DNA from: an uncultured virus (IMG/VR IMGVR_UViG_3300032931_000293)
Lineage: Duplodnaviria > Heunggongvirae > Uroviricota > Caudoviricetes
Reading direction: 5' to 3' (one strand)
DNA: 64,000 bases
Virus record (IMG/VR): IMGVR_UViG_3300032931_000293
A program made the position numbers and the translations under genes. How positions within the stretch are numbered: position 1 is the stretch's first letter; each line of letters starts with the position of its first letter. The notes beneath the pieces are model-generated. The model made no database searches. It was not told where the DNA came from and saw only the letters and a program-made list of their open reading frames with translations. Shown here piece by piece: positions 15,686-58,381 of the stretch.

Positions 15686-16222
15686 ATGAAAGATACTTTA
15701 ATTATAGGTGCTGTTGCTGGCCCCGGCGCCGGAAAGTCAACATTTTCGGGTGGTTTATTTAATAAATTAAAAACTTCGGGTATTAATTGCGAATATGTGC
15801 AAGAGTATGCTAAAACATTAACTTGGGAAAAGAATTTTGAGGCACTAAAACATCAATTTTATGTTTCCGGGGTTCAATCTTATACTCAAGATATGCTTAT
15901 AGGGCAAGTAGAAGCAATTATAACAGATTCCCCAATAGTAATAGGATTAATGTACTATAAAGAGGAAAATGATAATATTAGAAAGGCATTTGAAACTTAT
16001 ATAGTTGAGTCATTTAGAAGACAAAATAATATAACATTCTTCGTTAATAGAAAAAGAAAATATAATCCAATCGGTAGAACACAAAAAGAATCCGAGGCTA
16101 TTGAAATAGATAATAGAATTAAAAAGTTGTTTCAAGATAATGCCTTGAGTTATATCGAAGTTGATGGAGACGATTTTGGATTAGATAAAGCATATAATAT
16201 AGTCTTAAAGGAGTTACAATGA
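15686..16222 (+). CDS. P-loop nucleotide kinase-like protein (NadR/AAA_28 type)
   Basis: AGPGAGKST Walker A, EYAK, ITDSP, GRTQ; AGGAG RBS before ATG 15686. Confidence 0.75.
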   Translation: MKDTLIIGAVAGPGAGKSTFSGGLFNKLKTSGINCEYVQEYAKTLTWEKNFEALKHQFYVSGVQSYTQDMLIGQVEAIITDSPIVIGLMYYKEENDNIRKAFETYIVESFRRQNNITFFVNRKRKYNPIGRTQKESEAIEIDNRIKKLFQDNALSYIEVDGDDFGLDKAYNIVLKELQ

Positions 16223-17142
16223 ATTTACCACAACCAGGATCCGCAACATGGCTTTCTCAAGGGGAATACAACGCAGTCTTGAGAATGCGAAAAGAATCTG
16301 AACATGAAGAATATAAGTATCTTCATCTACTTCAAAATATACTAGAGAATGGTATTGAAAAGGGTGATAGAACTGGTACCGGTACTAAAAGTATTCCGCA
16401 TGCAACTCTTTCATATGATTTATCAAAGGGGTTTCCTCTTTTGACTACTAAAAAGATGGCTTGGAAAGTTATGAAAGTGGAGTTGGAGGGGTTTATTAAA
16501 GGAATAACTTCTAAAAAATGGTATCAAGATCGTGGATGCCATATATGGGATGAGTGGTGCAATCCAAGAAAAGTTCCATATGGACATGATATTGATACTA
16601 TGAAAAGAATGAAAGAAGAGGATGATTTGGGGGTCATATATGGCTCACAATGGAGAAATTTTAATAATCAAGGATATGATCAACTTAAAGTTATTGTTGA
16701 TACATTAAAGAAAAATCCTAATGATAGAAGAATGGTTTGTTCGGCGTGGAACCCGTGTGTTTTAGGCGATGTTGCATTGCCGAGTTGTCATTATTCTTGG
16801 TGTGTTAGTGTGTGTGGAAAAAAATTAAATCTATCATATACAATGCGGAGTGTAGATACTGGTTGCGGGGAGCCGTTTAATCAAGCATCATATTCGCTTC
16901 TTTGCCATCTTCTAGCCAAGGAAGCTAACCTAGAGGAAGGAATTGTCACGGGATTTTTGAATAATGTACACATATATAACAATCATATTCCCGGATTAAT
17001 GGAACAAATAAATCGTATTCCGTTTAAATTTCCTTCAATCAAAACAGATAAATTTACTTCTATATTTGAATGGGAATCATCCGATACGGTTTTGATTAAC
17101 TACGAGTCTCATCCGAAAATTTCTCTACCAATTGCAGTTTGA
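16219..17142 (+). CDS. thyA: Thymidylate synthase
   Basis: DRTGTGT, FPLLTTK, YGSQWR, ALPSCH, RSVD..G.PFN, HIY. Confidence 0.93.
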   Translation: MNLPQPGSATWLSQGEYNAVLRMRKESEHEEYKYLHLLQNILENGIEKGDRTGTGTKSIPHATLSYDLSKGFPLLTTKKMAWKVMKVELEGFIKGITSKKWYQDRGCHIWDEWCNPRKVPYGHDIDTMKRMKEEDDLGVIYGSQWRNFNNQGYDQLKVIVDTLKKNPNDRRMVCSAWNPCVLGDVALPSCHYSWCVSVCGKKLNLSYTMRSVDTGCGEPFNQASYSLLCHLLAKEANLEEGIVTGFLNNVHIYNNHIPGLMEQINRIPFKFPSIKTDKFTSIFEWESSDTVLINYESHPKISLPIAV

Positions 17143-20050: not shown

Positions 20051-20317
20051 ATGGAACCACAAATCCCAGATGATTCTGCTGATATAACGCAAGAAGAACA
20101 AGCATTTCTAGAAAAAAATAGACTTCAATCCTTTAGAGTATATCATGCAAGAACATTAGCATCAGCCCTTCAATTAATAAAAAGTAACAAAAAAGAGGAT
20201 GCTATTAAATATCTTCATGATGAAATTTATAATATTACACAGATAAAAAATAAAGAGTTTTCAAATTTGATGGACGCATTAACTTTGAAATTGGTATTAA
20301 GGAATTCAAAAAAATGA
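20051..20317 (+). CDS. Hypothetical protein
   Basis: TTTTGGA-N2-TATGAT promoter, RBS. Confidence 0.6.
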   Translation: MEPQIPDDSADITQEEQAFLEKNRLQSFRVYHARTLASALQLIKSNKKEDAIKYLHDEIYNITQIKNKEFSNLMDALTLKLVLRNSKK

Positions 20318-20811
20318 TCAAAATGATAGTAGCCCACGATGAAAATAATGTAATTGGATATAAAAATGCAATTCCTTGGATAAATAAGGAAGATTTGAAG
20401 TTGTTTAAAACTCTTACTACTAATAATACGATAGTAATGGGGAGAAAAACTTGGGATTCTCTTCCTAAAAAGCCGTTGCCAAATAGAGTAAATATAGTTG
20501 TAACTAGGCAAAAATTACCATCTACGAATGAAGTTATATTTGTAAATACTCTTTCGGATGCTATTAGCCATCCAAATAATATAGGAGATGTATATATAAT
20601 TGGTGGAGAGCAATTATATAAATTTGCTTTAGATTATGACGTAATTGAAGAAATTGAAGTATCTTTAATATCAGGAATACATGAAGGCGATGCCTTTTTC
20701 CCTAAACTTGATATGTTGGAAAAATGGTATAAATCCATAGTTAGAAATCATAAGACATTCAAACAAATAACATATGTTAGAAATAGAGGGCAATTAGATG
20801 GAACATATTAA
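20314..20811 (+). CDS. folA: Dihydrofolate reductase
   Basis: VIG..N.IPW..KEDL..FK, VMGRKTWDSLP..PLPNR, IIGG, GDAFFP. Confidence 0.92.
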   Translation: MIKMIVAHDENNVIGYKNAIPWINKEDLKLFKTLTTNNTIVMGRKTWDSLPKKPLPNRVNIVVTRQKLPSTNEVIFVNTLSDAISHPNNIGDVYIIGGEQLYKFALDYDVIEEIEVSLISGIHEGDAFFPKLDMLEKWYKSIVRNHKTFKQITYVRNRGQLDGTY

Positions 20812-21595
20812 GAACATTATTCCCACATTTCATATTATTGCCGAAACAAAATTATGTGAAGAAGGAGTTAGAGCATTTTTTAACTTGTCTAAACCTAGAT
20901 TCTTTACCAATTTAGATGAGAAAAATAAAGTTAAAGTATCGGATAGTGAAAAGACGATTGAAGTAGTTGGTAATATATGTAATATATTACAAAGTGAAAG
21001 AACGGGAAATAATAAAGAGTACGTTGAGTTAATTAATAAGCATTTCCCGGAACTAGGTTCTCATACGTTTGTAACTATAGCATTCAATAATGTATCGCAA
21101 ACCTTCATTGATAAAATACATAGGATGCATGCTAAAGTAGAAATACATCAACGAGAACTTGGTAATGAGCAATTAAAGTTTTGGTTATTGCCAACTTATG
21201 AGGACGATAAGGATTTGGCCTATAGATTTGCCGAATTATTTGAATCGTATGGAACATTAAAGACTAAATTGGAATCGGATTTGGCTAATAAGAATAGAAA
21301 TACTTCAAAGGACTTGGAATCCATTAAAAGATTGCTACCAAATACATATGCTCTTGATTGCGTAGTGACTACAAATCTACATGTGTGGAAAGATATAATA
21401 GTAAAATACACCGATTTAAACTATGATGACGAGATAAGATATATTTTATTATTTCTCACTAAAGTATTTAAAACGAAATATCAAAATGTATTTGAGGATC
21501 TCGTATTAGTTGAAAAATCGGGAAATATTATTGGCATTGACTCCTTAAAAGTTGACGGTAAAATATGGAGAGACAGTAAAATTATTAGGAAATAA
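20798..21595 (+). CDS. ThyX (flavin-dependent thymidylate synthase)-like protein, catalytic motif degenerate
   Basis: H..VT...NVS, RLLPN....VVT.NL..W, EIR motifs present; RHRx7S replaced by HRMH...HQRE. Confidence 0.6.
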   Translation: MEHIKNIIPTFHIIAETKLCEEGVRAFFNLSKPRFFTNLDEKNKVKVSDSEKTIEVVGNICNILQSERTGNNKEYVELINKHFPELGSHTFVTIAFNNVSQTFIDKIHRMHAKVEIHQRELGNEQLKFWLLPTYEDDKDLAYRFAELFESYGTLKTKLESDLANKNRNTSKDLESIKRLLPNTYALDCVVTTNLHVWKDIIVKYTDLNYDDEIRYILLFLTKVFKTKYQNVFEDLVLVEKSGNIIGIDSLKVDGKIWRDSKIIRK

Positions 21596-21596
21596 A

Positions 21597-22373
21597 ATGA
21601 AATTTTTAAAATATGATTTAACAAATGTTGCCGTTATAGGAGACATTCATTCATCTCTTGACAATCTTCAAAATATATTAAAATTAATTGAAGTAGATAA
21701 AAGAAAAAAATTAATTACTTTAGGCGATATTTGGGATAGAGGAAACGAACCAAATGAAGTAATTGATATTTTATACGATTTATACACTTGTGGAAAGTTA
21801 ATTCCAATAATAGGAAATCATGACGTTAAACATATTAGACATTTTACGGAAAATAAAAACTACAATTTGGGTACTCAACAGGAAGCAACTTTAAATAAAT
21901 TAACTAAAGAGTCAATTGATAAATTTGTTGAAATTTATCGAGAAGATATTGTTTGTATTTACGATCCGATTATGAAGATATTCCTTTCTCATGGTCCCGG
22001 CGGAAGACCTCAAAATATATTGTATAAAAACTATGAAAATGAGAGAATTATTATAGGCGGTCAACCGAATGTGACATTTGAAGAATTCATCCTTAAAGAT
22101 AACCACAATGTTGCTAAAAAACATATTTCTACATTATTGTACGGAATAACCAATGGCGATAAAACTATGGATGGATTTCCGGTAAGACTACCTATTATTA
22201 AAGATATAAATGATAATTTAGAAGGGTGGGTATATTGCTATGGACATATTCATAGTAGTAACTTTTATCCCGAAAAGAATAAATCATGTATTTGTTTAGA
22301 TTTTTGTTCTCCAACTGGAAAAATTGGAGCTGCTATTATTAACTCAAAAGATGATATTAATCTATTAGTTTAA
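21597..22373 (+). CDS. Calcineurin-like metallophosphoesterase
   Basis: GDIH, GDIWDRG, GNHD, SHG, GHIH. Confidence 0.85.
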   Translation: MKFLKYDLTNVAVIGDIHSSLDNLQNILKLIEVDKRKKLITLGDIWDRGNEPNEVIDILYDLYTCGKLIPIIGNHDVKHIRHFTENKNYNLGTQQEATLNKLTKESIDKFVEIYREDIVCIYDPIMKIFLSHGPGGRPQNILYKNYENERIIIGGQPNVTFEEFILKDNHNVAKKHISTLLYGITNGDKTMDGFPVRLPIIKDINDNLEGWVYCYGHIHSSNFYPEKNKSCICLDFCSPTGKIGAAIINSKDDINLLV

Positions 22374-22656
22374 TAGTTCTTTTAATTTTCTTTATCGCTA
22401 TCATATTAGGGTGGGTTATAGTTCTAACCCACCCTAAATATTTTTTATAACATTCATTTTCTTCTAATTTATCATAAGTATCATACATATGAACTTCTTC
22501 CAATGGTATACAATTATGCAAAAATGAATGACAAGTTAAGCACAATCTCATAGTATCATTTAATGTTCCACCCTCACTTTTAGGTATATAATGATGAAGA
22601 GTCATATCATCATCTCTAACTATTCTATTACATAAAGGACATTTTTCTTTTTGCAA
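22357..22656 (-). CDS. Small HNH endonuclease
   Basis: CPLC, HHYIPKSEGG, LCLTCH. Confidence 0.8.
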   Translation of the reverse strand: MQKEKCPLCNRIVRDDDMTLHHYIPKSEGGTLNDTMRLCLTCHSFLHNCIPLEEVHMYDTYDKLEENECYKKYLGWVRTITHPNMIAIKKIKRTIKLID

Positions 22657-22671
22657 GATTAATCCTTACTA

Positions 22672-23661
22672 TTATTCGGTGGAATATAACCCAGAAGTAG
22701 AAACATCCACTTCGTTATTTTCATTAATCCTCTCAAATTTTATTATAAATCTAGTACAATCGTTTGGGACACTTTGAGCAACAATAATGGCATTCATCGA
22801 TATACAATAATTTAAACATGAATACAAGCCAAATCCATGTATTTCTCCAGTTTCTTGATTATTATTTTTTGTAGTTACTCCAAAATTTTTAAATATTTTG
22901 GATATAATATCATTTGAAATTCCCTTACCGTTATCCTCATATATTAAATATTTATTTTGTGCATCTCCATATATTCTAATTTTTAATTTTTCCAACATAT
23001 GATCGTTATGGTCTATTGAATTTTTAGCCAAATTCAATATGACTTGTGAAAGATACATTGGAGAGTGTTCGGCAACGAAATTTAAACTTTCTAAATTTAC
23101 TTCAATATTATCGTTTGATATTTTATCTTTTATATTTCGTTCTAGTAATACTATTTGTATCCAAGAACTAACCGTATCTTTTACGTTTGATTTAAATACG
23201 GAGAAATTTTTAATTTTATTTATATTTTTACTTAAATTATTTAATAATTCACTCGTTTGTATCGTAGCCATCTCTACTTTTCTAAGAATTTCAACATGGC
23301 GAGCATCTTTCTCATCGTCTAACATTCTAGTTATAGATATGTAAATTCCAGATATCCAAGGACTTAATTCGTGATTTAATCCGGCTATTATTCCAGAGAG
23401 GTGATGATTATATGACGTTGTTCTCTCTAATTCATTTTGAATTTGATTTTTTTCGTTTTGAATTTTGTCAATAGTAGTCAATTTTGAGAGTTCCGATTCA
23501 ACCGTTTTCATTTTTGATTTACTTTTTTCAAGTAATAAAAAAAGAATATAAATTAATACCATTCCAATGATAGTTGATATTAAATACGATATATATGTTC
23601 CAATAATAGCAAGTGTTATTAAGGCTAAAAAAGCCAAAAAAACCTGTTTATATTTTTTCAT
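22672..23661 (-). CDS. Membrane sensor histidine kinase
   Basis: Two TM helices, coiled coil, H-box NHELSP, N-box LNLAKNS, G1 EDNGKGI, G2 HGFGLY. Confidence 0.85.
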   Translation of the reverse strand: MKKYKQVFLAFLALITLAIIGTYISYLISTIIGMVLIYILFLLLEKSKSKMKTVESELSKLTTIDKIQNEKNQIQNELERTTSYNHHLSGIIAGLNHELSPWISGIYISITRMLDDEKDARHVEILRKVEMATIQTSELLNNLSKNINKIKNFSVFKSNVKDTVSSWIQIVLLERNIKDKISNDNIEVNLESLNFVAEHSPMYLSQVILNLAKNSIDHNDHMLEKLKIRIYGDAQNKYLIYEDNGKGISNDIISKIFKNFGVTTKNNNQETGEIHGFGLYSCLNYCISMNAIIVAQSVPNDCTRFIIKFERINENNEVDVSTSGLYSTE

Positions 23662-24001
23662 TTTTCTTTATGAATTCCCTAATGGTTGAAATCACTTTTA
23701 AATCTTTATTTATATATTCGTACTTTTCCAATGCTTTTATAGTTAAATCGTCTTTACATCCGGTAATAAACAATATTTTTCCTAAATCGCTTGTAAATTT
23801 TTCAGCAAAGTGTATGCCGGTTTTTCCATTTTGCAAGATAACATCTAGTATACTTATATCATACTTATTATTTTTCATTATATCAACTGCACTTGCGAAG
23901 CTTGTAACATAGTCAATTGTATGCTCCGGATAGTCTTCAACTAAAATATCTCGGACTGAATCTCCGAAAAAAGAATGGTCTTCAAGGTAAAGAATTTTCA
24001 T
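23648..24001 (-). CDS. Single-domain response regulator (receiver)
   Basis: ILYLED, ILDV (phospho-Asp), FITG, INK; no output domain. Confidence 0.85.
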   Translation of the reverse strand: MKILYLEDHSFFGDSVRDILVEDYPEHTIDYVTSFASAVDIMKNNKYDISILDVILQNGKTGIHFAEKFTSDLGKILFITGCKDDLTIKALEKYEYINKDLKVISTIREFIKKNEKI

Positions 24002-24004
24002 TTA

Positions 24005-24388
24005 TCATCCCCCTAATGCTAAACTAATTAAAAACTTTGCTAACTCTACTATTATAGCACCAACGCTTGCTATTGTAGCACTTCTCATATTCAAAATAGA
24101 AGAACGCTTTTTTATTTTTTCGCTCTCCTTTTTTAATTTTTCATTTTCTTTTTTTAACTTTTCAATGTGTTCTTCGTAAATATATTTTAATTTTTCTTCT
24201 TTTTCTTTTCTATACTTACCCATAATATGTTCTAAATATTGATCTACCGTATCAAGAAGTTGTCTATATTTTAACGATTCCATTTCTTCATTGGAAAAAC
24301 TATTAGTTAGAATGTTCTCTAAAGCAAATTTCAATTCGGTTGCCTTCACACTTGCATCTATCCATTTTTGTAAGTCTTCATGTGGCAT
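24005..24388 (-). CDS. Coiled-coil protein with C-terminal membrane helix
   Basis: First gene behind late promoter 24421; hydrophobic tail. Confidence 0.6.
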   Translation of the reverse strand: MPHEDLQKWIDASVKATELKFALENILTNSFSNEEMESLKYRQLLDTVDQYLEHIMGKYRKEKEEKLKYIYEEHIEKLKKENEKLKKESEKIKKRSSILNMRSATIASVGAIIVELAKFLISLALGG

Positions 24389-24427
24389 AGAGTTAGTAGT
24401 TCCTTGATTAGTACAATGTATATTTAT

Positions 24428-24459
24428 AAAAAAAGGGAAGCAATTACGCTTCCCTTTTT
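24428..24459. terminator. Bidirectional intrinsic terminator
   Basis: AAAAAGGGAAGC/GCTTCCCTTTTT. Confidence 0.75.
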
Positions 24460-24477: not shown

Positions 24478-25134
24478 TTACTTGCCAATCCCTTTATTTC
24501 CTTCGTTCTTGAATTTGGCACCCTTTGGGATAATTTCCCCAATATTTTCTTTGATTTCGGTTTCGGGGGCAACTTCACCCTCTCCACCCAAAATACCTTC
24601 AAGATTCTCTTCTCCACCTTCTCCACCCTCGGCACCTTCTTCGGCGGATTCGGCAGCAGCAACTATTTCTCCAAAGTCTTCATCGGTTAACTCGCCTTTA
24701 GTTTGGGCTAATTCTTTAATTTTGTCTACGAGTGCTTGAATTTCAATTGCTTCGACTCCTGCATCTTCTAATTCTTCGCCTTCTTCTCCACCTTCAATTG
24801 CTTCTGGTGCAACTTCCGATGTTTCTTCGGCTTCAACTACTGGGGCGGAAATTTCATCGGTAGGAGCAACCTCTTCTCCCGCTTCACCTCCAACTTCCTC
24901 TTCTTCTGCCTCTTCCTCTCCATGTGCCCAATCAAGTAATGATTTAAGCAATGAAACGCTTAAAGTTACCTTCTCTTCTTCTACAACCGGATCGCTTGCT
25001 GCGGCATCGGTTATTGGGGGGGCATTAGTGCTTGGTTCCATTGTGGCGGGTGTAGCCATAGCATCGGCATTTTCTTTAAAGATGCCTTTGATTTTTGCTC
25101 TAAAGTCTTCAACAAGTTTGTTGCTAGTAGTCAT
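24478..25134 (-). CDS. Very acidic protein, possible prohead core/scaffold component
   Basis: E/G/A-rich low complexity; late operon. Confidence 0.5.
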   Translation of the reverse strand: MTTSNKLVEDFRAKIKGIFKENADAMATPATMEPSTNAPPITDAAASDPVVEEEKVTLSVSLLKSLLDWAHGEEEAEEEEVGGEAGEEVAPTDEISAPVVEAEETSEVAPEAIEGGEEGEELEDAGVEAIEIQALVDKIKELAQTKGELTDEDFGEIVAAAESAEEGAEGGEGGEENLEGILGGEGEVAPETEIKENIGEIIPKGAKFKNEGNKGIGK

Positions 25135-25155: not shown

Positions 25156-25713
25156 TTATAACTTATTTGTTACCAAATCTGGCAACTTTTGTTCGGGTGA
25201 TTTTGGAATATTTGGTGCTTGCCCCTCTGGACTTAAATCGGGCGAAGTTGTTGGAGTTGTTGGGGTAGCATTTGATCCTAATAGAACTTCGCAAGCTTCT
25301 TGCTTTAGTCCATTAACAAATTGATCAAATTCACTTGTAGCAACTCCGGTAGATGCATCAACTTCTTTTTTTTCAATAGATAATTTAGCAATTATCTCCG
25401 AAATGGCGTTAGGTCCCATCTTTTTAACACTACCTTTCAGTGTATCCAAGCCAATTTCGTTTTGCCTTTCAACTATCATTCCATCACCGCCACAAGATAT
25501 TGGTGGTTGTGGTGGTTTTATTTGGGGAGATAATGAAGTCCCGTTGGCAACCCCATCTATTGCTTCCCCTTTAATGCCATTTAATCTATTTCTAATATTA
25601 TTTCTAAAATCATCAAGTGAAGTTAATTCAATAACATCTTTTTGTTGTTCTTGTGGTTGAATTATTGGTTCTTCCACTCCGAAAATCTCATTAAGTTTAT
25701 CTTTAAATGCCAT
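25156..25713 (-). CDS. Late protein, possibly an internal head protein
   Basis: Late operon; KLNE N-terminus. Confidence 0.5.
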   Translation of the reverse strand: MAFKDKLNEIFGVEEPIIQPQEQQKDVIELTSLDDFRNNIRNRLNGIKGEAIDGVANGTSLSPQIKPPQPPISCGGDGMIVERQNEIGLDTLKGSVKKMGPNAISEIIAKLSIEKKEVDASTGVATSEFDQFVNGLKQEACEVLLGSNATPTTPTTSPDLSPEGQAPNIPKSPEQKLPDLVTNKL

Positions 25714-27757: not shown

Positions 27758-28909
27758 TTATAAATTGTACTTTAATAGATAATCGTTACTAATAGCCTTG
27801 AAACTCATTTGACCATCGAACCTCTTAACAACAACACCTTCAATTAGATGCTCAATTCCTGGATACTTTGTAGTTATTGCGAAATCAAGTAGAATCTTTA
27901 TTGTATCTAACTTTAATTCCTTCAAAGTACCTTCGGCAACCGTGTGAACGTGCTTTCCTTTGTATCCAAATTCCTTTAGTTTTTCAACTAATAATTTTCT
28001 TTCCTCTACGCTAACGTATTGTTGCTTATCAATATCCCAAATATCAAAAATGTAAATATCTAATTCGGTCCTTTGACTTCTATTGCCATTCATACTTGGC
28101 CCTACATATTCCCCTTGAACGGCAATATTTCTTTTTAGTTTCTTGATAGCATCAATTAATCCTTTTTCTCTTGCAATATTATAGAATTTACTATCGTTAC
28201 TTGACTTATTCTTACTCAAGAAACTCCAAAATCCAAGTTTTTGTTTCCAAACACAAAGATTACGACTACATACACCAACTTCGGTGCCTTTTAAGTAACA
28301 AGTAAGCGAACTTCCATCTTCCTTGATAGTAATTTCGTATTTTTGAGTAAGATTTGATTCGTCTTCAAAGAATCTAGAAAAATTTTGGATTCTTTCTTGA
28401 TCGGTCTTCTTAAGATAAGCGGGGAATCCACCAGAAGTCTTTTGATATAGATACTTATATACTCTTTTTCTCAACGGCAACGGAAGAATCTTCAAGGCAT
28501 AATCTCTCCATCCAACTTGATGAATAGGCTCAACCGTCATTTCGGCAGGATCTTCCCATTTCATGACTTTAAGTGCTTCGGCAATATCTTTACTCTTAAT
28601 CTCATTAGTAAATTCTGAAATTGGAAGAGCCAATCCTTGACTCAAAGTTTTCTTTAGTTTTATACTACGGATTCTTGCCCCACTAACACCATTATATTCC
28701 TTGGCATTCTTTTCAAGGAACTTGAATCTAGGGTCGGACATAGGAACAATAGAATCAATTTCAAAGTAAACACATTTATCTCCAACTTTGAATTCTTCTT
28801 TTTTTGTAACTACGGGCCACCCACCGTCAATAATGGCTTCAACAATTCTATCCGCATCTTTAATGGGATTAATAGCAGTAATAGTTTTGATTGATACTAA
28901 ATTTCTCAT
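27758..28909 (-). CDS. RNA ligase, DRB0094/Rnl2-like, with N-terminal OB (tRNA-binding-like) domain
   Basis: PIKDADRI, FP..LKKTDQERIQN, KEDGSS (motif I), QGE, FDI, EGVVVK, FKAIS. Confidence 0.85.
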   Translation of the reverse strand: MRNLVSIKTITAINPIKDADRIVEAIIDGGWPVVTKKEEFKVGDKCVYFEIDSIVPMSDPRFKFLEKNAKEYNGVSGARIRSIKLKKTLSQGLALPISEFTNEIKSKDIAEALKVMKWEDPAEMTVEPIHQVGWRDYALKILPLPLRKRVYKYLYQKTSGGFPAYLKKTDQERIQNFSRFFEDESNLTQKYEITIKEDGSSLTCYLKGTEVGVCSRNLCVWKQKLGFWSFLSKNKSSNDSKFYNIAREKGLIDAIKKLKRNIAVQGEYVGPSMNGNRSQRTELDIYIFDIWDIDKQQYVSVEERKLLVEKLKEFGYKGKHVHTVAEGTLKELKLDTIKILLDFAITTKYPGIEHLIEGVVVKRFDGQMSFKAISNDYLLKYNL

Positions 28910-29178
28910 TTTACTTCCTTAAAAATTATTGGCAATTTACTTTCGCCTTTTTCATTCCAAGTACGAATCTGTGATTCTCTTAACTCTTTCTTTTCGCAAT
29001 GAATAGTCTCAATAACTACTTCGGCTCCCGTATTAGCCTCGATAGCCATACATCCGGCATCATTTTCCGATAAATTAAAAATTAACTTAAGTGCTTTAGT
29101 GATATCACTATACGCACAATCGTCATCGTTGCGGAGTATTACCTCAAATTGCTTCAATTTGTCTACTTTAAAACTCAT
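28906..29178 (-). CDS. clpS: ClpS-like N-degron adaptor
   Basis: VILRNDD...L..IF.LS...A...A pattern; the conserved His appears replaced. Confidence 0.6.
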   Translation of the reverse strand: MSFKVDKLKQFEVILRNDDDCAYSDITKALKLIFNLSENDAGCMAIEANTGAEVVIETIHCEKKELRESQIRTWNEKGESKLPIIFKEVK

Positions 29179-32713: not shown

Positions 32714-33058
32714 ATGGGTAGACCAAAAAAGATATCAAAAGACTTCAATCAATATCTTGTATGTTTTGATTTTTATTATCTTACTTCTTTTAGTAAGAAA
32801 AAATCCGTGCTTAAACTTCATTTATTCTCCCCTGAAAAGTCACCCGATGCATCAGTTAATTACGTATATTCAATAGTTTCACAAGCATTCAAAGAAGCGT
32901 TTGGTAAAACCGAGTTTAATAAAAATGTTGTGAGATTTGAAAAATTTGTGTATATGCCAAAATTAGAAGGCGAAGTTGCTAAAAGTAACTTTGGATTAAC
33001 AGATGACGCTAAAGTAAAATCGTTAGTTGTACTATTCAAGAAACACCTTTTGTCTTAA
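32714..33058 (+). CDS. Basic hypothetical protein
   Basis: AAGGA RBS; MGRPKK AT-hook-like start. Confidence 0.55.
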   Translation: MGRPKKISKDFNQYLVCFDFYYLTSFSKKKSVLKLHLFSPEKSPDASVNYVYSIVSQAFKEAFGKTEFNKNVVRFEKFVYMPKLEGEVAKSNFGLTDDAKVKSLVVLFKKHLLS

Positions 33059-33947
33059 ATAGTTCCTTAAATATTGCTTCTAACACTGGGACTACTATAC
33101 TATTTCCGGCTAATCTATACATTGCATTACGACTAATTTTAGTTGATATAATCTTGTCAATATCACTATCGCTAACACCCATAAATCTAAATGCCTCTCT
33201 TGGAGTTGGAACTCTAAATTCATTAATTAAAGTAGTCCATGTTGGACAAAATAATCCACCATATCCGTGAGTTAATTCGCAAGTTAATGTTGGGATCACT
33301 TTAGTATCTTTAATGTTCTTTTGGCGTTTCACGATATATACTCGACCATTATCGGTAAGATAATACTTTGGGTCTACGTTAGTCTCCAATAAATCTTTTA
33401 TTTGTGTTTTTAATAACATTGATTCGGGGAAATTAAAAGAATCATTTCCCAATATACTTACCATGAATATCCGCTCTCTACTTTGTGGGATCCCATAATC
33501 CCGTGCATTAAGAACTTTCCAATAATTTTTATAACCTAATGTCTCAAGATATTCGCACCACTTATCAAAATCGTGCTTATTCTTTTTTCCAACTAAGTTC
33601 TTCACATTTTCTAATAATAAATATTTTGGCTTTCCACTTTCAATAAGTCTTTTACATTCCCATAGTAAACTACTTCTAGTGTTACTACCTAATTCTAATC
33701 CTTTTTTAGTGCCAGCCAATGATATATCTTGACACGGGAAACTATATGTAAATAAATCACATTGCGGTAATACATCTAACTTTGAAATATCTCCATAATT
33801 TGGGGTATTTCCGTGAATAGACATATATGCTTTAATAGCATTTTCGTTTATTTCGCTAATTCCAACTACTTTGTAAGGAACTCCTATATTCCTTAATGCC
33901 ATGGATTGACTACCATAACCGCTAAATGCTTCAAATACTTTTAACAT
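33036..33947 (-). CDS. DNA (cytosine-5) methyltransferase
   Basis: FSGYG, SFPCQD, ENV, PQSRER, LAGNS. Confidence 0.92.
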   Translation of the reverse strand: MLKVFEAFSGYGSQSMALRNIGVPYKVVGISEINENAIKAYMSIHGNTPNYGDISKLDVLPQCDLFTYSFPCQDISLAGTKKGLELGSNTRSSLLWECKRLIESGKPKYLLLENVKNLVGKKNKHDFDKWCEYLETLGYKNYWKVLNARDYGIPQSRERIFMVSILGNDSFNFPESMLLKTQIKDLLETNVDPKYYLTDNGRVYIVKRQKNIKDTKVIPTLTCELTHGYGGLFCPTWTTLINEFRVPTPREAFRFMGVSDSDIDKIISTKISRNAMYRLAGNSIVVPVLEAIFKELFKTKGVS

Positions 33948-34971
33948 AAATGTCCTTAAATATTGCTTCTAACACGGGAACTACTATACTATTTCCAGAT
34001 ATGTGATAGAATTTATTAATGTTTATTCCTTTTGCTATCATGTGTTCTTTAACCAACTTATAAGAACCTTCACCAAATCCCATAAGTCTAAATACTTCTC
34101 TTGGGGTTGCTAATCTAATAGAATTAACATCAAATCCCAAGTCTACTTTATTAATTTCGGACTCACTTAATCCCTTTAGTTGTTCTCGTAGTAGATATGC
34201 ATCATGTATTTGATTACTATATAGAATTGCTCCAAAATTTCCGGGGTGTGATCCCTGGGTAGTTAAGGCATGTACTACACTATTAAGTCCATATACTCGT
34301 TTTGTACTATTTGTGCTTTGAGTATTATTAATAGTTTTTATAATTCGTTCTCTCATTTTAGGATTTGAGTAGTAATGAATATCTCCAAATTCATTTATAA
34401 CATCATCGTCCGAATCCATAAAATTACTCAAATTGTTGTCTAATGCCGAAACGGTAAAATGAAATTTCTTTTCTAATGATGATACAACAAATACTCTCTC
34501 TCGTTTTTGTGGTATCCCATAGTCTTGTGCATCTAACACCGACCAAGTATTGATATATCCTAAACCACTTAAGAAATCTAACCATTTATTAAAGTTAGAA
34601 ATATTTTTAGGACTTACAAGTTGCTTTACATTCTCCAATAACAATGTCTTTGGGAGTTTCTTTGACTTCTTGAGAAGTCTTCCTACTTCCCATAAAAGCG
34701 CAGATCTTGTTGGAGAACCTTCATCAAGCCCCTTTTGATTTCCAAGAATAGATATATCTTGGCAAGGAAAAGAATAGGTTAATAAGTCACATTCCGGTAA
34801 TTCGTCTACTTTAGAGATATCACCTAAATTTGGAGTAACTCCGTGAATTGATTCGTATATACCATGAATAGTTTTATCTACCTCACAACAAATACTTGTG
34901 TGACCTATACTTAAGTTTTTTAGTGCTTGAGTTTGAGCACCTATTCCAGAGAATAATTCAACTATTTTCAT
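33931..34971 (-). CDS. DNA (cytosine-5) methyltransferase
   Basis: FSGIG, SFPCQD, ENV, PQKRER, SGNS. Confidence 0.92.
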   Translation of the reverse strand: MKIVELFSGIGAQTQALKNLSIGHTSICCEVDKTIHGIYESIHGVTPNLGDISKVDELPECDLLTYSFPCQDISILGNQKGLDEGSPTRSALLWEVGRLLKKSKKLPKTLLLENVKQLVSPKNISNFNKWLDFLSGLGYINTWSVLDAQDYGIPQKRERVFVVSSLEKKFHFTVSALDNNLSNFMDSDDDVINEFGDIHYYSNPKMRERIIKTINNTQSTNSTKRVYGLNSVVHALTTQGSHPGNFGAILYSNQIHDAYLLREQLKGLSESEINKVDLGFDVNSIRLATPREVFRLMGFGEGSYKLVKEHMIAKGININKFYHISGNSIVVPVLEAIFKDIYVKSI

Positions 34972-51962: not shown

Positions 51963-52270
51963 GGCTAAAATTCCGCCGCCAAAAAAATTTTTTAAATTAG
52001 ACATATACACAAAAAAATTTGATAATCCTAAAATTAGTCCACTGGTCTAGACCCCCATTTTTTAAGCCTATCTATGTCTATAAACACTGTCCAGATAACG
52101 ATTTATGCCTTTTAACCCCCTATTAATTACCCAACTAACTACCCAATTTAATAGTACCTTCCAAGATACTCCCAATTATCTTCCCACCAATTCCCCCTTG
52201 AGTGGTGTATGATACACCCACTATGTATTTTCCCTCTTGACATTCCTTTCCCGTATCTACAATGTCCCTT

Positions 52271-52582
52271 ATGAGCAACACCTATCCTCTTCCTCTTGCG
52301 CAGGCCAATCTTGTTCGTTGGTTGGACAAGCGTGTACCTCTCACGGCTGGTGACGTTACCCTTAGCATCGAGGAACGTTCCAAGTTAATCACGATGATCT
52401 ACAATGGTAGCATTCCAATTTTCATTAGGAAGGATTGCGAGGATAGTTATTCATTGATAGTTGATGAGGGTAAGGGGTCAATTGAGGACTTTTATGTGCT
52501 TGAGGCTAACGTATGTGGTGACAATATTTGTCAGGTGATGGAAGACAATTCAATTCGTTTTAGTCAATGGAAGATGGCTTGA
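52271..52582 (+). CDS. Small early protein, leaderless
   Basis: ATG 7 nt after TACAAT; stop inside the next -35 box. Confidence 0.6.
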   Translation: MSNTYPLPLAQANLVRWLDKRVPLTAGDVTLSIEERSKLITMIYNGSIPIFIRKDCEDSYSLIVDEGKGSIEDFYVLEANVCGDNICQVMEDNSIRFSQWKMA

Positions 52583-52611
52583 CATCCTCTAAAGTCACTT
52601 AGGATACACAT

Positions 52612-52797
52612 ATGGACAACATACAAGTCGCTCTCAATAAGATCCAAGCTTTTAAGCGAGGTGAGCGGATGATAGTATCTGGGGCATGGTTGGATGTGCT
52701 ATCTGATCTTGATCCCGATTTAGCTTGCAAGGTGAAGAGTATTCCGAATCCTGACCGAGTGGGCTTGTTGGATCAATACGTGGCTTGGATTGGCTAA
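52612..52797 (+). CDS. Small early protein, leaderless
   Basis: ATG 6 nt after TAGGAT. Confidence 0.6.
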   Translation: MDNIQVALNKIQAFKRGERMIVSGAWLDVLSDLDPDLACKVKSIPNPDRVGLLDQYVAWIG

Positions 52798-52960
52798 AAA
52801 GGGGCTTGAGTAGCTTTTGAGTAGCTTTTGAGTAGCTCTTAAACCCTTAAGGGTTAGGAAGCTACCTTGAAGCCCTTGAGTAGTGTGTGATACAGTCAAT
52901 AAGAACCTATCTTGACATTCATTTCCGATCTACTATAAAGCCACTTACAAGGAGCCTACT

Positions 52961-53086
52961 ATGACATTCCATGAGTTTTTCGGTGATGGTGAGGTTATTA
53001 GTGCGATGGTAACGGTTGGTATAATTTGTATTGCGATGATTACTCCTAACATTTGTGTTGCAATTCGTCGGATTGGTCGGAAGTGA
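52961..53086 (+). CDS. 41-aa membrane peptide
   Basis: AAGGAG RBS; hydrophobic core. Confidence 0.5.
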   Translation: MTFHEFFGDGEVISAMVTVGIICIAMITPNICVAIRRIGRK

Positions 53087-53235
53087 CAAGTTTTGTCATA
53101 GGGATAGTTGTTGGTATTGTAGCCTATCGAGTAGTTATGGAGAAGCTTAGAGCTATTTTCAAGTAACTTTGTAAGCCCTCTAAGGGGGCTTGACTTTTTT
53201 CCCCATCTATTAGGATATACTCAAGGAACCCAACC

Positions 53236-53487
53236 ATGATCCCTATTCTTTTCTTTATCTTTCTTAGTATTGCGGTAGTTTCGTTTATTACGGCACTTAT
53301 AAATCTATTGCTAGGTGCTAGGAGGATCCAGAACATGGCATGGAATGCAGATTTTAGGGACAGTAATGGTACAATTAGCAAGACATTTTTGATTCATATT
53401 ATTTGTGCAATTTTCTATGTAATTAGTAGTATTGGGACGGCCATTCTTGGTATTGCTTGGATAGTTCAAGCGATCAAGGGGGTTTGA
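53236..53487 (+). CDS. Two-TM membrane protein
   Basis: Promoter, AAGGA RBS, two hydrophobic helices. Confidence 0.6.
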   Translation: MIPILFFIFLSIAVVSFITALINLLLGARRIQNMAWNADFRDSNGTISKTFLIHIICAIFYVISSIGTAILGIAWIVQAIKGV

Positions 53488-53488
53488 C

Positions 53489-53671
53489 ATGAATTACATT
53501 AAGGTTAATGACGATGATGATGGGGTTGTGATTGTTGAGGATTATGAGGGTGGCATTAAGTCATTTTCGTACAACGGTGGTTACGAGAAGAAGCAAGCCC
53601 GAAGAGCGGGAGAGAAGTTGGCGGAACGGGTTGCAAAGGAGAAGGGATGCGATTGGGGATGCAACTATTGA
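53489..53671 (+). CDS. Small early protein
   Basis: Stop inside the next -35 box. Confidence 0.55.
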   Translation: MNYIKVNDDDDGVVIVEDYEGGIKSFSYNGGYEKKQARRAGEKLAERVAKEKGCDWGCNY

Positions 53672-53700
53672 CTTTCTTTGAAGGTTGATAGGATACTATT

Positions 53701-53868
53701 ATGATTAAATACTCTGAGATTGAGCATCTTCCTTTGGATCATCCTTTGATGCTTCAGTTTATGAAGCAAGAGAGGGATCTTGAGGTTTACAAGGAGACTT
53801 CTAGGGATTGTGGTATGGATGAAGAGTCAATGGAATATTTCAATCGATATGTTGCGGGAGACAAGTAG
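53701..53868 (+). CDS. 55-aa leaderless protein
   Basis: ATG 6 nt after TAGGAT. Confidence 0.55.
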   Translation: MIKYSEIEHLPLDHPLMLQFMKQERDLEVYKETSRDCGMDEESMEYFNRYVAGDK

Positions 53869-53921
53869 CCTCTTGACTTCCGATCCTTCCGCATACACTT
53901 TCATTCATAAGGAAACATACC

Positions 53922-54101
53922 ATGCGATTCCCGGTTACGGTTTGGTTTGACAACGGAAACAAGGTCAAGTGTGAGAATGACAAGGATCTCAAGAATGAAA
54001 TCCTTAATGCTCATTCGGAGCAAATCTTTGCCGAATCAATCCATGATGCGGATGGGAAGGACCTTGGATGCCATTGGAGTGTGAAGATTGTTCCACTTTG
54101 A
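53922..54101 (+). CDS. 59-aa protein
   Basis: Promoter 53873, AAGGA RBS. Confidence 0.55.
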   Translation: MRFPVTVWFDNGNKVKCENDKDLKNEILNAHSEQIFAESIHDADGKDLGCHWSVKIVPL

Positions 54102-54114
54102 AGTAATCTTTTAG

Positions 54115-54255
54115 TTTTATGCTACTACGAGGTAGAAGCCTCGATTGAGAATAAAGCATAGGTCCGAAAGGAAATCCCTTTGCCGAGTAGATTCCCGAAA
54201 GGTAAAGCCAGAAGGATACCCGACCCCGAGCGAAAGCCCAGGGTTGTTTTTGTTT
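54115..54255 (+). ncRNA. Candidate structured RNA (GAAA tetraloops, loop-E-like motif)
   Basis: Stems TATGCT/AGCATA, CGAGG/CCTCG, TCC-GAAA-GGA, CTTTGCC/GGTAAAG, CGACCC/GGGTTG, T tail. Confidence 0.5.
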
Positions 54256-54415
54256 GATTTGGTGTATCACACACTGCTCAAGGGGATGTCCTCTTGAATG
54301 TCTGGTATTGCCAGGTTGTAAGTTGCTTTATAGTAACTTGTTATGCTTTTAAGTTACTTTGAATGTCCTTAAAGATGTCCTATTGACAAGTTGAGTTGAT
54401 GTGTTAGGATATGAG

Positions 54416-54470
54416 CCGCTATCACTATGAACGTGAGCAGAAGCCCTAGGTGTGTCGCCTAGGGTTTTTT
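54416..54470 (+). ncRNA. Candidate sRNA of about 55 nt
   Basis: Own promoter 54383-54410 and terminator CCCTAGG/CCTAGGG-T6. Confidence 0.5.
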
Positions 54471-54506
54471 GTTTGACTTTATCGAGTGGCTTGATATGAT
54501 ATGAAT

Positions 54507-54650
54507 ATGAGACATCAAGAACTTGCTTCGGGATACGCTACTTACGACGTTCAGGACTGCAAGTCGGCTCGAAAGTCGATTCGATACTATAAGCGTAAGG
54601 CCCATAAGGCTTTACGGCAGATCCGCAAGAAGGAAATAAACGAGGAATAA
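54507..54650 (+). CDS. 47-aa basic leaderless protein
   Basis: ATG 6 nt after TATGAT; K/R-rich. Confidence 0.55.
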   Translation: MRHQELASGYATYDVQDCKSARKSIRYYKRKAHKALRQIRKKEINEE

Positions 54651-54653
54651 AAC

Positions 54654-54860
54654 ATGACTCTTTCGCCTGCATTTATTGAGACATTGAAGGTTATTGCTAA
54701 GAAAAAGACTTGGCAAGACAAAGATGATGAAAACGGTGAATATTTTAACCCTTATGATTGGTGCGGTGGTAACTTTAATGATGCATATGAGGGTGGTGTA
54801 GTTACAGGAGAAATTGAAATGGCTAGAACCGTCCTTGAAGAACTAGGGATTGACTTTTAA
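54654..54860 (+). CDS. Small early protein
   Basis: GGNFNDAYEGG...GE..AR motif; RBS. Confidence 0.6.
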   Translation: MTLSPAFIETLKVIAKKKTWQDKDDENGEYFNPYDWCGGNFNDAYEGGVVTGEIEMARTVLEELGIDF

Positions 54861-54882
54861 GGAAGCTCATTAAGATACTATT

Positions 54883-55089
54883 ATGAGCTACGAACTTCGT
54901 TCCGCCGACTTCCAAAATGTAATCTTCACGGCATCTACATATGATGATATGTGGAAGCAACTTATGGATTTCAAGGATGCACAACTTGATGGTAATATTG
55001 ATGGACTCATTATCTGTAATACTATCACCAAGGAATGGGATTATGCTTGGAGGGTTGCAATCAACCACAAGGATTTGTTGGTTTCATGA
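54883..55089 (+). CDS. Small leaderless protein
   Basis: ATG 6 nt after TAAGAT. Confidence 0.6.
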   Translation: MSYELRSADFQNVIFTASTYDDMWKQLMDFKDAQLDGNIDGLIICNTITKEWDYAWRVAINHKDLLVS

Positions 55090-55310
55090 GCTACGCCCTT
55101 TGGAAGAAATTGAAGTCACTTGATTATGAGATCGCTATGAAGGATCTTGACATCAATGATGAAATGGTTAATCTTCCATTCCCGGTTGGTAGGATTGCTT
55201 TCAAGATGTTCAAGGACCATCGTGGAGGTGGTTATGATGTCCTTTATTGGACATATACGCATACCGGACCCGGATCAAATAAAACAACTTACACGATTTG
55301 GAACAAATGA
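55086..55310 (+). CDS. Small early protein
   Basis: ATGA overlap. Confidence 0.5.
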   Translation: MSYALWKKLKSLDYEIAMKDLDINDEMVNLPFPVGRIAFKMFKDHRGGGYDVLYWTYTHTGPGSNKTTYTIWNK

Positions 55311-55492
55311 ACAACAATGAAATTCCCCGCCGTCTAAGTTCAAGTACCAATCCTTTGTCTAATGAAAAGCAAAAATGGTTAAATTGGTGCTACGATTATG
55401 GGAGTGATATTCGTGATTCGCTTCCTCCCGGACCCGAAAAGGAAAAAATGACTAATCTCTTGGCCGGACTCATCCTTGTAGATGGTGAATAA
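55307..55492 (+). CDS. Small early protein
   Basis: ATGA overlap. Confidence 0.5.
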   Translation: MNNNEIPRRLSSSTNPLSNEKQKWLNWCYDYGSDIRDSLPPGPEKEKMTNLLAGLILVDGE

Positions 55493-55493
55493 A

Positions 55494-55748
55494 ATGATTA
55501 AAACTCTTAGTAACGTTCATTATCATATGGACATGGGTTGCGGAATTGATGTATGGCGCATTGTTGGTGATGATGAAGAGGGTAGAACCAAGTCGATTTC
55601 GACCCCCGTCAAAATGGATGAGAAAAACGACATTCTAACTACCGCTAGTGGTTCGGTGTATCATATCACTAACTATAGTGGTAGTCGTGAAATGTTCATT
55701 GCCCAAGTGGTGAAGGACATTGCAAACGGAGGGTATGAAGTCCGTTGA
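55494..55748 (+). CDS. Small early protein
   Basis: T.SGSVY motif; stop inside the next -35 box. Confidence 0.55.
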   Translation: MIKTLSNVHYHMDMGCGIDVWRIVGDDEEGRTKSISTPVKMDEKNDILTTASGSVYHITNYSGSREMFIAQVVKDIANGGYEVR

Positions 55749-55793
55749 CTTCTACTCTCAAGCCGCTATAAAGCTACTCACAAGGAAACTATC

Positions 55794-55997
55794 ATGGCCA
55801 CCATTAGACTTAATGCGTTTGACAAGGATTCAAGCGGATCCTACTCGGAAACGGTTGAAGTTTCCTCCCTTGATGAACTCAAGGCAAAGGAAAAGGTGTT
55901 TGATGGTGCGGTTCCCTTCACTCGGTTCTATTTTGACCATGAAGTGTTGGAGTGTAACGATGAAGCTATTGAACAATATTGTGATGAATTGATTTGA
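55794..55997 (+). CDS. Small acidic early protein
   Basis: Promoter, AAGGA RBS. Confidence 0.6.
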   Translation: MATIRLNAFDKDSSGSYSETVEVSSLDELKAKEKVFDGAVPFTRFYFDHEVLECNDEAIEQYCDELI

Positions 55998-55998
55998 C

Positions 55999-56169
55999 AT
56001 GAGGGGTTATATTGATGCCCCCGATGGTACTCGATACTACGGGGAAGGAAAAACTTCTAAAGATATATACAATGAGGTAAATCGTCAAGTGCTTCAGATG
56101 CATGATGGTAAGATTCCGTCTAGTTGGTTAGGAAAAGCATCAACATTGGTTATTACGGATAAGCAATGA
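55999..56169 (+). CDS. 56-aa protein
   Basis: Fills the gap; ATGA overlap with next gene. Confidence 0.45.
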   Translation: MRGYIDAPDGTRYYGEGKTSKDIYNEVNRQVLQMHDGKIPSSWLGKASTLVITDKQ

Positions 56170-56402
56170 TCCATCAAACGATTGGAGTGTATCCTAATGG
56201 TGATTACAAGATGAACGGAGTACCTTCCGAGCATCTCGAAAATCATATCGAGTATAATAAATTATGGCGATGGGGTCGGGCTTTAATTGTTGATGGTGTA
56301 GTGGTTTATAAGGGAAATGTCCATGAGGAAACCCTTAAAATGGTACTCGATAAGATTCCGTCAATGTTCAAGCCGACTAAGGATACACAACCTTATCATT
56401 GA
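56166..56402 (+). CDS. Small early protein
   Basis: HIEYN..WR.GRAL.VDG; stop in TTGAC. Confidence 0.6.
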   Translation: MIHQTIGVYPNGDYKMNGVPSEHLENHIEYNKLWRWGRALIVDGVVVYKGNVHEETLKMVLDKIPSMFKPTKDTQPYH

Positions 56403-56517
56403 CAAGTAGCTTCGTGGGTGAAATCCCACCCGAACCTTGAGTAGTGTATGATACACATTATCAAGTTACTTGGAATTGACTACTTGACTTTTACTCTGAA
56501 GCTACTAGGATACTATT

Positions 56518-56754
56518 ATGAGCAACACCATCGATCTCCGCAACTGTGTCAAGGGGCAGAAGCTCCGTTCTTCGCAAGGTGCAATCCTCACCTATTCTAA
56601 GCCATTGGAAGAGGGTAACTTCTACGATCATGAAGTGATCTACCCCGATGGTAGCTTCGGAACTCGCATCCATGATGGGCATGTGTATCGTAATCCCGAC
56701 AAGCGGATTCCCGAGGATCATGATATCGTGGAAATCCTCCCGATTGATGCTTGA
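56518..56754 (+). CDS. Small leaderless protein
   Basis: ATG 6 nt after TAGGAT; stop inside the next -35 box. Confidence 0.65.
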   Translation: MSNTIDLRNCVKGQKLRSSQGAILTYSKPLEEGNFYDHEVIYPDGSFGTRIHDGHVYRNPDKRIPEDHDIVEILPIDA

Positions 56755-56784
56755 CATTCCCAATCCCCTTGTATAGTCATACCC

Positions 56785-56853
56785 ATGAAGACAATCATCA
56801 ACATCATCACCAACATCATCGTGATTTTCGGTAACTCGGAAATGGAAGGATAA
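56785..56853 (+). CDS. 22-aa Ile-rich leaderless micropeptide
   Basis: ATG 7 nt after TATAGT; ends on the RBS of the next gene. Confidence 0.4.
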   Translation: MKTIINIITNIIVIFGNSEMEG

Positions 56854-56854
56854 C

Positions 56855-57319
56855 ATGCAAGCCAACGGAAATGCGCCAATCAAGGTTAAAGTGGGAAGCC
56901 GCTACATTGACCTTATGAACACTGTCGTAAAGATCAAAAAGGTCACAAAGACGGGTTGGTTCATTTCCGATCAGTCAAGCTACCGTGAAGATGGTACTTG
57001 CTACCACGGTGCCGCATTGAATCTCTATAAGGAAATTGAAGATACTAAGGATGTTGATTCGTCAATTCATGATATCCTAAATAGTAATGCGGATAAATTT
57101 GTTAATTATATCGGTAGCTTGCGGGATCGTTAGCAAGATGAAAAAGAGCATGAAGATATCGCCAATTATATGAGTGCTATTAATGTGTTCACTCAAACTA
57201 CTATCCCCAACGTAACGGAAGTCAAGGCTAGTAAGTGGTCGGTATCATTTAAGATGCCAAACAATCGTACATATTCATATTACCTTAAAGGTAACAACGG
57301 CGGATTGAAGGAAATATGA
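56855..57319 (+). pseudogene. Gene interrupted by in-frame TAG at 57131-57133
   Basis: Frame stays open 61 codons past the TAG; LRDR*QDEKEHED context suggests a Trp codon. Confidence 0.55.
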
Positions 57320-57465
57320 TGGAAACATTTAGGGTAAATCAATCTGCTAAAAGGGCGTTGAAGATTCTCTTGGACAATTTTGAGAAACATGGTATTCCGG
57401 TTAATACGGATGTAATTGCCGAATTAGAATATATTATTTCCTCAACTACAGAATCTACTGAATGA
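57316..57465 (+). CDS. 49-aa protein
   Basis: AAGGA RBS, ATGA overlap. Confidence 0.45.
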   Translation: MMETFRVNQSAKRALKILLDNFEKHGIPVNTDVIAELEYIISSTTESTE

Positions 57466-57587
57466 ATCAAGTAGCCTTTTAATCCCTCATGGGCTTAGAA
57501 GCTCCCCTTGAATAGTGTATCATACATATTATCGAGTTACCTGGAATTATCCTCTTGACTTCCATTCCTACTTGCTAGGATACATTC

Positions 57588-57893: not shown

Positions 57894-57923
57894 CTTCTAC
57901 GCCTACCCTCTACAATCAAAACC

Positions 57924-58235: not shown

Positions 58236-58264
58236 CATCGTAGGAAAGTCGCTAGGATACAATC

Positions 58265-58351: not shown

Positions 58352-58381
58352 CTTCCCTTTCCCACTCATTAGGATACTCAC

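Follow-up and report, generated by a model that had tools for sequence, protein, structure and literature searches.

Phages have so far been known for borrowing single signalling genes or for jamming the two-component systems of their hosts. A histidine kinase on a phage has been described for phiCDHM1, a temperate phage whose agrDBC cassette belongs to peptide quorum sensing, is 60–70% similar to host genes and, as described there, comes with no phage-encoded regulator (PMC4124054). In bacteria, HK853 of Thermotoga maritima, paired with the receiver RR468 (PDB 3DGE), and ZraS have a dimerization and histidine phosphotransfer (DHp) domain joined to a catalytic, ATP-binding (CA) domain, with H-E at the H-box and the N, G1, F and G2 boxes, and the RR468 receiver lacks an output domain. 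The kinases of the BceS–BceAB and LiaFSR systems have adjacent transmembrane (TM) helices with no extracytoplasmic domain and are encoded together with a membrane protein. We describe here a locus that has likenesses to each of these systems. It lies in a stretch of 64,000 nucleotides from an uncultured virus (IMG/VR record IMGVR_UViG_3300032931_000293; Caudoviricetes), referred to below, at its full length, as the window, and consists of genes for a small membrane-anchored protein (X), a single-domain receiver and a histidine kinase, preceded by a T4-type late promoter motif and followed by an HNH gene (Table 1).

The kinase and receiver share with HK853–RR468 and ZraS all of the features listed above for those proteins, but they are phage-borne, have Pro in place of the phosphatase residue Thr264, lack a conserved sensor, come with an obligatory X and stand behind a late phage promoter. 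The likeness to BceS and LiaFSR holds for the window's own clade; across the family, in contrast, the TM part is variable or absent, the regulator has no DNA-binding domain, and X is a single-pass protein with a cytoplasmic hairpin. Unlike the phiCDHM1 cassette, the trio includes a cognate receiver, and no cellular member of the family was found. What is new is a kinase that has neither a HisKA profile match nor the phosphatase motif and is accompanied by a family-specific third gene, X; otherwise the system resembles a class I kinase paired with a receiver encoded on its own. A literature search found no publication on the X–receiver–kinase trio.

We propose that the module is a private, late, one-way phospho-timer in which the receiver acts on X, with the outcome left open, and we put the probability of this reading at roughly 45%. 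Its footing in the sequence is an intact kinase and receiver chemistry, a fixed gene order, a late promoter and purifying selection. The kinase would autophosphorylate on His97, and the phosphate would go on to Asp53 of the cognate receiver, a transfer within the pair that is very probable. It would act in one direction only, and the phosphorylated receiver would accumulate with late expression and with the cytoplasmic state (e.g., ATP) in the manner of a timer or latch; such one-way action without a conserved sensor is rather likely. The receiver, which has no output domain of its own, would work through a protein that it binds. The best candidate is membrane-anchored X with its conserved cytoplasmic hairpin, and the odds on X being this partner are about even. 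X would in turn gate a late membrane event, for which lysis timing is the most plausible candidate and yet a doubtful one. Binding of the receiver to X and gating of lysis by X are the weakest steps of the proposed mechanism.

The late character of the module is suggested by its promoter. The motif TATAAATA is the T4 late promoter consensus, read by gp55 (PMC1524935). Its raw count in the window does not exceed chance (15 against an expected 18.2). Of these 15, 11 precede the start of an open reading frame (ORF) by no more than 60 nt, compared with 71 of 1000 for 55 permuted 8-mers, and the same is true of 57 of 80 copies in a relative, G001 (331,849 bp, 92% complete). That relative encodes gp23 (E = 7.5e-98) and a gp55-type sigma factor (E = 2e-25). 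For a T4-type late transcription unit, the motif upstream of a gene is thus seen in the window and gp55 in G001. Because G001 has gp23 and gp55, 22 window ORFs match in it, and the nearest homologues of the kinase, receiver and X (82, 89 and 92% identity) each lie on a 385,866-bp contig, the window most likely comes from a T4-like jumbo phage. Neither a capsid gene nor one for a late sigma factor was identified in the window, and the lytic, T4-like character of its phage is inferred from G001. The first-pass annotation had placed a late promoter ahead of a set of four genes, and the motif and all four ORFs, almost abutting on the minus strand, were found where it had put them. The hairpin that leads into the promoter resembles an intrinsic terminator and would insulate the operon from the acidic-protein gene upstream; a hairpin with a T-run precedes TATAAATA in 10 of 12 loci folded.

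The kinase matches Pfam HATPase_c above cut-off (E = 4e-13). Pfam HisKA (PF00512) gave no match at E ≤ 0.1 in the window kinase, nor at E ≤ 0.05 in four homologues. A family profile built from 44 homologues, out of 2299 candidates, aligns to HK853 over the DHp and CA domains, with H97-E98 falling on H260-E261. A structural model (pLDDT 83.9), with helices at residues 2–116 and 120–154, matches the DHp–CA structures of ZraS and HK853. The full set of catalytic boxes reported from the first inspection is present, and N210, N214, D243, G245, G247, F257, G276 and G278, from the N, G1, F and G2 boxes, are invariant in 44/44 kinases. The H-E pair on a DHp hairpin and the HATPase_c boxes point to a class I-like (HisKA) histidine kinase.

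A survey of the H-box used 60 kinase rows, some of them redundant, from which three truncated before the H-box were set aside. In all 57 usable rows the H-box has H-E, and the position four residues beyond the histidine (H+4), aligned to T264 of HK853 and occupied by Pro101 in the window, is Pro (H-E-x-x-P). The Thr or Asn that marks bifunctional HisKA kinase/phosphatases at this position (E/DxxT/N) was absent in 57/57. In four HisKA proteins H+4 Thr/Asn was reported to be needed for phosphatase and not for kinase activity, and the H+1 acid to be needed for kinase activity (PMC3510030). The H+1 acid, E98, is retained in this family. Substitution at H+4 is also reported as a means of locking two-component systems on (PMC11502775).

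Residues 7–44 of the window kinase form two neighboring hydrophobic stretches that no loop separates, and there is no external sensor domain, as the first-pass annotation had noted. It inferred an intramembrane-sensing phospho-switch with X as partner. On such a model, a kinase like BceS or LiaS would pair its TM helices with that of X, X would be a sensor accessory, and the pair would read membrane stress. A loop-less architecture with adjacent TM helices is given as the defining mark of such kinases (PMC8534201), and a C-terminal TM helix is found in 46 of 48 X members. What conservation there is lies elsewhere, however. Among 16 close kinase homologues, the TM region has a mean conservation of 0.35 and no invariant column, compared with 0.74 and 20 invariant columns for the DHp and 0.82 and 75 for the CA domain. 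Hydropathy finds no TM helix in 20 of the 57 kinase rows. Of these, 13 were judged to be soluble, 6 were put down to truncation or a misplaced start, and 1 was borderline. A tree of 46 rows, which has no outgroup, requires three changes for the soluble state, at least two of them forced by well-supported branches. At L001, the sole locus with a TM-less kinase where X is visible, X is kept beside the soluble kinase, and the conserved positions of X are cytoplasmic. Intramembrane sensing thus falls away as the core mechanism and is unlikely as an explanation of the module. One-way action of the kinase is favored because it has neither the phosphatase Thr/Asn nor a sensor domain that is conserved.

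The kinase at one locus, L045 (3324–4631), has a loop of ~30 residues between its two TM helices, and some family members, such as this one, may sense outside the membrane. A small signal-peptide protein is encoded just upstream of the promoter there (L045 2133–2507).

The receiver falls just short of the Pfam Response_reg cut-off (29.6 versus 30.2 bits). The canonical receiver active site is described as five residues, DD, D, T and K (PMC12632262). The window receiver carries E7, D8, D53, T80 and K99 and, as first described, no output domain; E/D at position 7, the other four residues and G81, the small residue at T+1, are kept in 46/46 aligned receivers. Judged by these residues, it is a true receiver, neither a pseudo-receiver nor a cREC. 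The cREC proteins of jumbo phages share the receiver fold, and the window receiver has a weak cREC match (E = 0.006), but they are described as never occurring with histidine kinases and as tied to NAD+/cyclic-nucleotide systems (PMC7824862). The identity was rejected for the present receiver, which always directly precedes a kinase. Invariant residues outside the active site are H9, F11, L56, N58, G59, T61, G62, C82, D84 and T87. Because the loop from T80 to T87 is invariant on a receiver without an output domain, a conserved binding partner is suggested. G001 yielded only this one receiver, and no Hpt match. Another relative, in contrast, has on the same phage record as the module a further single-domain receiver of canonical type (Pfam E = 8e-19), at L042 (10290–10691; 25302–25643 in the record G002), behind a membrane-protein gene; no second kinase was found in G002, which is 32% complete.

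X belongs to a small family, encountered only together with the kinase–receiver module, with 24 close homologues and 36 clusters among 1.84 billion representatives. Its model (pLDDT 89.8) shows a helical hairpin followed by a long helix ending in the TM segment. W9 and S13 are invariant in 48/48 members, every member has K/R at position 20 and E/D at position 35, and Y41 is kept in 47/48. These conserved residues sit in the cytoplasmic hairpin and not in the TM helix, and the spacer between the two spans 32 to 77 residues. X may thus be pictured as a loosely tethered docking hairpin, conserved and cytoplasmic. The protein at 24005 had been put forward as a partner of the two-component pair. 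As a constant companion (13/13 loci) it has held up; pairing through the TM helices has not, given where the conserved residues of X lie.

X might instead be a regulator and not the output. Its hairpin could inhibit the kinase DHp in the manner of Sda, or dephosphorylate the receiver in the manner of Spo0E and so replace the lost phosphatase, and the receiver would then target another phage or host protein. A kinase that is missing its phosphatase residue calls for an off-switch, X is a small helical hairpin encoded by the first gene of the operon, and small DHp-binding inhibitors are known (PMC8534201, section 4.3). The hairpin has, however, no invariant Gln or Asn. The Spo0E-like phosphatase (PF09388) was rejected as an identity for X, with no match in either of two records (G001, G002) at E ≤ 10, as was a pseudo-DHp, the X and kinase profiles being unrelated. 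We regard a regulatory role as improbable, a little more so than intramembrane sensing. X was also rejected as an HPt phosphotransfer protein: H54 is present in 39/48 members only, and G001 and G002 gave no Hpt match.

The module is conserved as a unit. With the kinase alignment as bait, two viral loci (of 60 candidate stretches) and 19 metagenome loci (of 122) were recovered, the latter comprising 17 family members and two generic kinases; in genomes the same bait gave three loci (of 32), all generic kinases at 24% identity. The order promoter–X–receiver–kinase was found in 13/13 distinct loci with upstream DNA visible (the window, L001, L002=L006, L004, L005, L010, L011, L012, L013=L014, L015, L016, L019 and L045=L046); L003, L007, L008, L009, L017 and L018, whose contigs begin too late, and L020–L024, which are generic kinases, were excluded. 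One of these relatives is a 332-kb T4-like phage. The late-promoter kinase–receiver pair of the first-pass annotation is thus supported as complete and conserved. With the receiver as bait, 4/4 viral loci (three distinct) have X and the kinase. No family member was found in 185,579 Genome Taxonomy Database (GTDB) species genomes, where the kinase bait gave generic kinases only and the receiver and X baits gave nothing out of 57 and 22 candidates. Among 50,697 phage records there was no kinase or X match and one weak receiver match (32% identity, E = 3e-3), and cultured phages likewise yielded no member of the family.

These results bear on whether the trio is a recent or decaying, functionless capture from a host, a possibility raised at the outset. 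The kinase is divergent and has no Pfam HisKA match, the receiver lies just under its cut-off, and module GC is slightly below that of the flanks in 9/9 loci, all of which could fit a capture. Each of six locus pairs, though, shows less nonsynonymous (dN 0.08–0.35) than synonymous divergence (dS 0.76 to saturated), the GC content at third codon positions of the module tracks the neighboring genes of each phage (rho 0.92, n = 9), the catalytic residues are invariant, and the genomes searched hold no family member. Because dN is below dS and third-position GC follows each phage, recent capture is refuted, judged by these substitution patterns the module is under purifying selection, and a functionless capture is very improbable. 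The module appears to be a vertically inherited, late-transcribed unit that one clade of T4-like jumbo phages has to itself.

A further alternative is that the module manipulates host two-component systems, the receiver draining host kinases or the kinase cross-phosphorylating host regulators or the flagellar motor pathway. Single-domain receivers can serve as phosphate sinks, and some relatives have a flagellin gene at a distance of ~5 kb or an additional canonical receiver. For a phage-borne agrC, signalling to a regulator of the host has been proposed (PMC4124054). A receiver that acts as a sink would not require a phage kinase, yet an intact one always accompanies it here. The draining of host phosphorelays, which had been offered as one role for the pair, leaves this kinase unexplained. 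The kinase and receiver also have family-specific invariant surface residues, and late expression would fit host takeover poorly. Distances among X, receiver and kinase correlate (Mantel rho 0.65–0.72 over 20 trios, 8 of them paired only via contigs of identical size), as expected if the three diverge together, although shared descent alone could produce this, and the correlation is taken to show shared descent and not contact. Host manipulation ranks as the least likely of the explanations that give the module a function.

The private late timer acting on X is connected to lysis by circumstantial lines only. PHROG 1193 ("hemolysin," XhlA-type) matches 6/48 X members (best E = 8.6e-5) and is, jointly with one unnamed family, the most frequent match; no curated family matches X above cut-off. 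XhlA-type proteins (PF10779, PHROG 1193) share with X a coiled coil followed by a C-terminal TM helix, but X has no Pfam match, carries an additional conserved N-terminal hairpin and adjoins no identified holin or endolysin. The likeness is weak and a lead only.

The second line comes from L053, reached by a search with the soluble clade. Its kinase is unrelated (25% identity), a canonical HisKA with Thr at H+4 and a longer N-terminus that looks PAS-like by eye. The layout equals that of the family: a coil-plus-TM gene, a stand-alone receiver and a kinase. The first gene matches holin PHROG 689 (E = 6e-7) and PHROG 1193 (E = 4e-4); a weak holin-family match (E = 0.045) was also obtained for the gene that follows the kinase. 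The entire arrangement recurs on another viral contig, L055, with a kinase 41% identical, and TATAAATA is absent from both loci. The three-gene layout may have arisen twice, and it is the best circumstantial link of the module to lysis. More broadly, lytic phages might run a phosphorylation clock for lysis built from a one-way kinase, a private receiver and an XhlA-like gate, a layout that would have arisen at least twice (in this family and in the PAS-HisKA trio of L053 and L055), in unrelated large phages and with different kinases; this generalization is unlikely.

Several observations weigh against the proposed timer and its link to lysis. BceS, which likewise lacks Thr/Asn at H+4, has a natural Val there (PMC11502775), so the loss of Thr/Asn makes loss of phosphatase activity likely but is no proof of it. 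The window's own clade (15 rows) retains two TM helices, which may matter there. Neither in the window nor in its relatives was a holin or endolysin identified next to the module, whose neighbors are dihydrofolate reductase (DHFR), Thy1-like and phosphoesterase genes. PHROG 1193 fails to match 42/48 X members, Pfam XhlA does not match X in G001 or G002 at E ≤ 1, and coiled-coil proteins with a TM helix can yield matches of this kind through composition. X and the first gene of L053 have no detectable homology (hhalign probability 0.6%). Lysis timing, named in the first-pass annotation as a possible output, retains the weak XhlA likeness and the L053/L055 layout in its favor and lacks a lysis gene next to the module.

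Table 1. Features of the module and of the analogous cassette; positions are those of the window unless a contig is named
Feature	Position	Strand	Description
Terminator-like hairpin	24430–24459	minus	12 pairs, listed on the plus strand; T-run on the minus strand leads directly into the promoter
T4-type late promoter motif TATAAATA	24421–24428	minus	32 nt upstream of X
X	24005–24388	minus	ORF of 127 amino acids, positioned as first annotated; conserved N-terminal helical hairpin (W9, S13, K/R20, E/D35, Y41), coil of variable length, C-terminal TM helix
Single-domain receiver	23648–24001	minus	ORF of 117 amino acids; E/D7, D8, D53, T80, K99 intact; invariant beta3-alpha3 loop; T80-G-C-x-D-x-x-T87 loop
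Histidine kinase	22672–23661	minus	ORF of 329 amino acids; two TM helices, coiled coil, DHp (H97-E98, Pro101), HATPase_c with N210/N214, D243-N-G-x-G, F257, H-G-x-G-L
HNH gene	22357–22656	minus	ORF of 99 amino acids
PAS-HisKA trio	L053 1667–5202; L055 3246–6834		Followed by a holin-like gene and two membrane/secreted proteins; just after a large structural-looking gene

The HNH gene downstream matches Pfam HNH (PF01844) above cut-off. Its closest model, HlpB (NCBIfam NF058586), is matched over nearly its full length. The HlpB of Bacillus subtilis is likewise a stand-alone HNH protein of ~100 amino acids, described as a DNA-binding, non-cleaving repair factor (PMC3765158), but the phage protein is well under the equivalog cut-off (55.6 versus 130 bits) and sits in a phage context. 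An HNH gene follows the kinase in 11/13 distinct loci with visible downstream DNA and is missing there in L001 and L045; in G001 its homologue adjoins DHFR, ~60 kb from the module. The gene is probably co-transcribed with the module, as a usual passenger of the late transcript and not a core signalling part. A strong 13-pair hairpin inside it (22406–22437) is terminator-like on the plus strand and lies just past the end of the converging phosphoesterase gene.

Other features of the surroundings vary among relatives. A second TATAAATA (23707–23714) falls within the receiver gene, at 45 nt from the start of the kinase that follows, and is seen in 1/14 loci. Upstream of the module, two ORFs (24478–25134 and 25156–25713) encode strongly acidic, low-complexity late proteins. 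Acidic proteins also stand upstream in L002, L005, L010, L012, L013 and L019, and a profile search found no link between these and the window's. On the other side (20314–22373), genes for DHFR, a degenerate Thy1-like protein and a metallophosphoesterase converge on the module, and the whole or part of this block recurs in most relatives; by inspection, a ThyA-type thymidylate synthase is also present in the window (16219–17142). In the 332-kb relative, an extracytoplasmic function (ECF) sigma-70 factor (TIGR02937, above cut-off) is encoded two genes upstream, on the strand opposite to that of the module (L001 5930–6472). Full-length flagellin-like genes (283 amino acids; NCBIfam flagellin E = 1e-44 for L005) lie ~5 kb from the module in L005 (13562–14413), L006 (13315–14202) and L010 (13692–14543), where they adjoin a large protein with a weak squalene-cyclase-like match.

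Elsewhere in the window, a ClpS-like adaptor gene (28906–29178; NCBIfam E = 1.6e-4, under cut-off) and, from inspection of translations, two DNA cytosine methyltransferase-like ORFs in tandem (33036–34971) were seen. From about 52000 to 60000, GC rises to 0.41–0.45 and ORFs are short and sparse, resembling the early or terminal-repeat regions of large phages.

If the proposed timer is right, T4-like jumbo phages would compute a late-infection decision through their own insulated kinase–receiver pathway, selected across a deep clade. If the output is lysis timing, this would be a control principle unlike that of the antiholin type.

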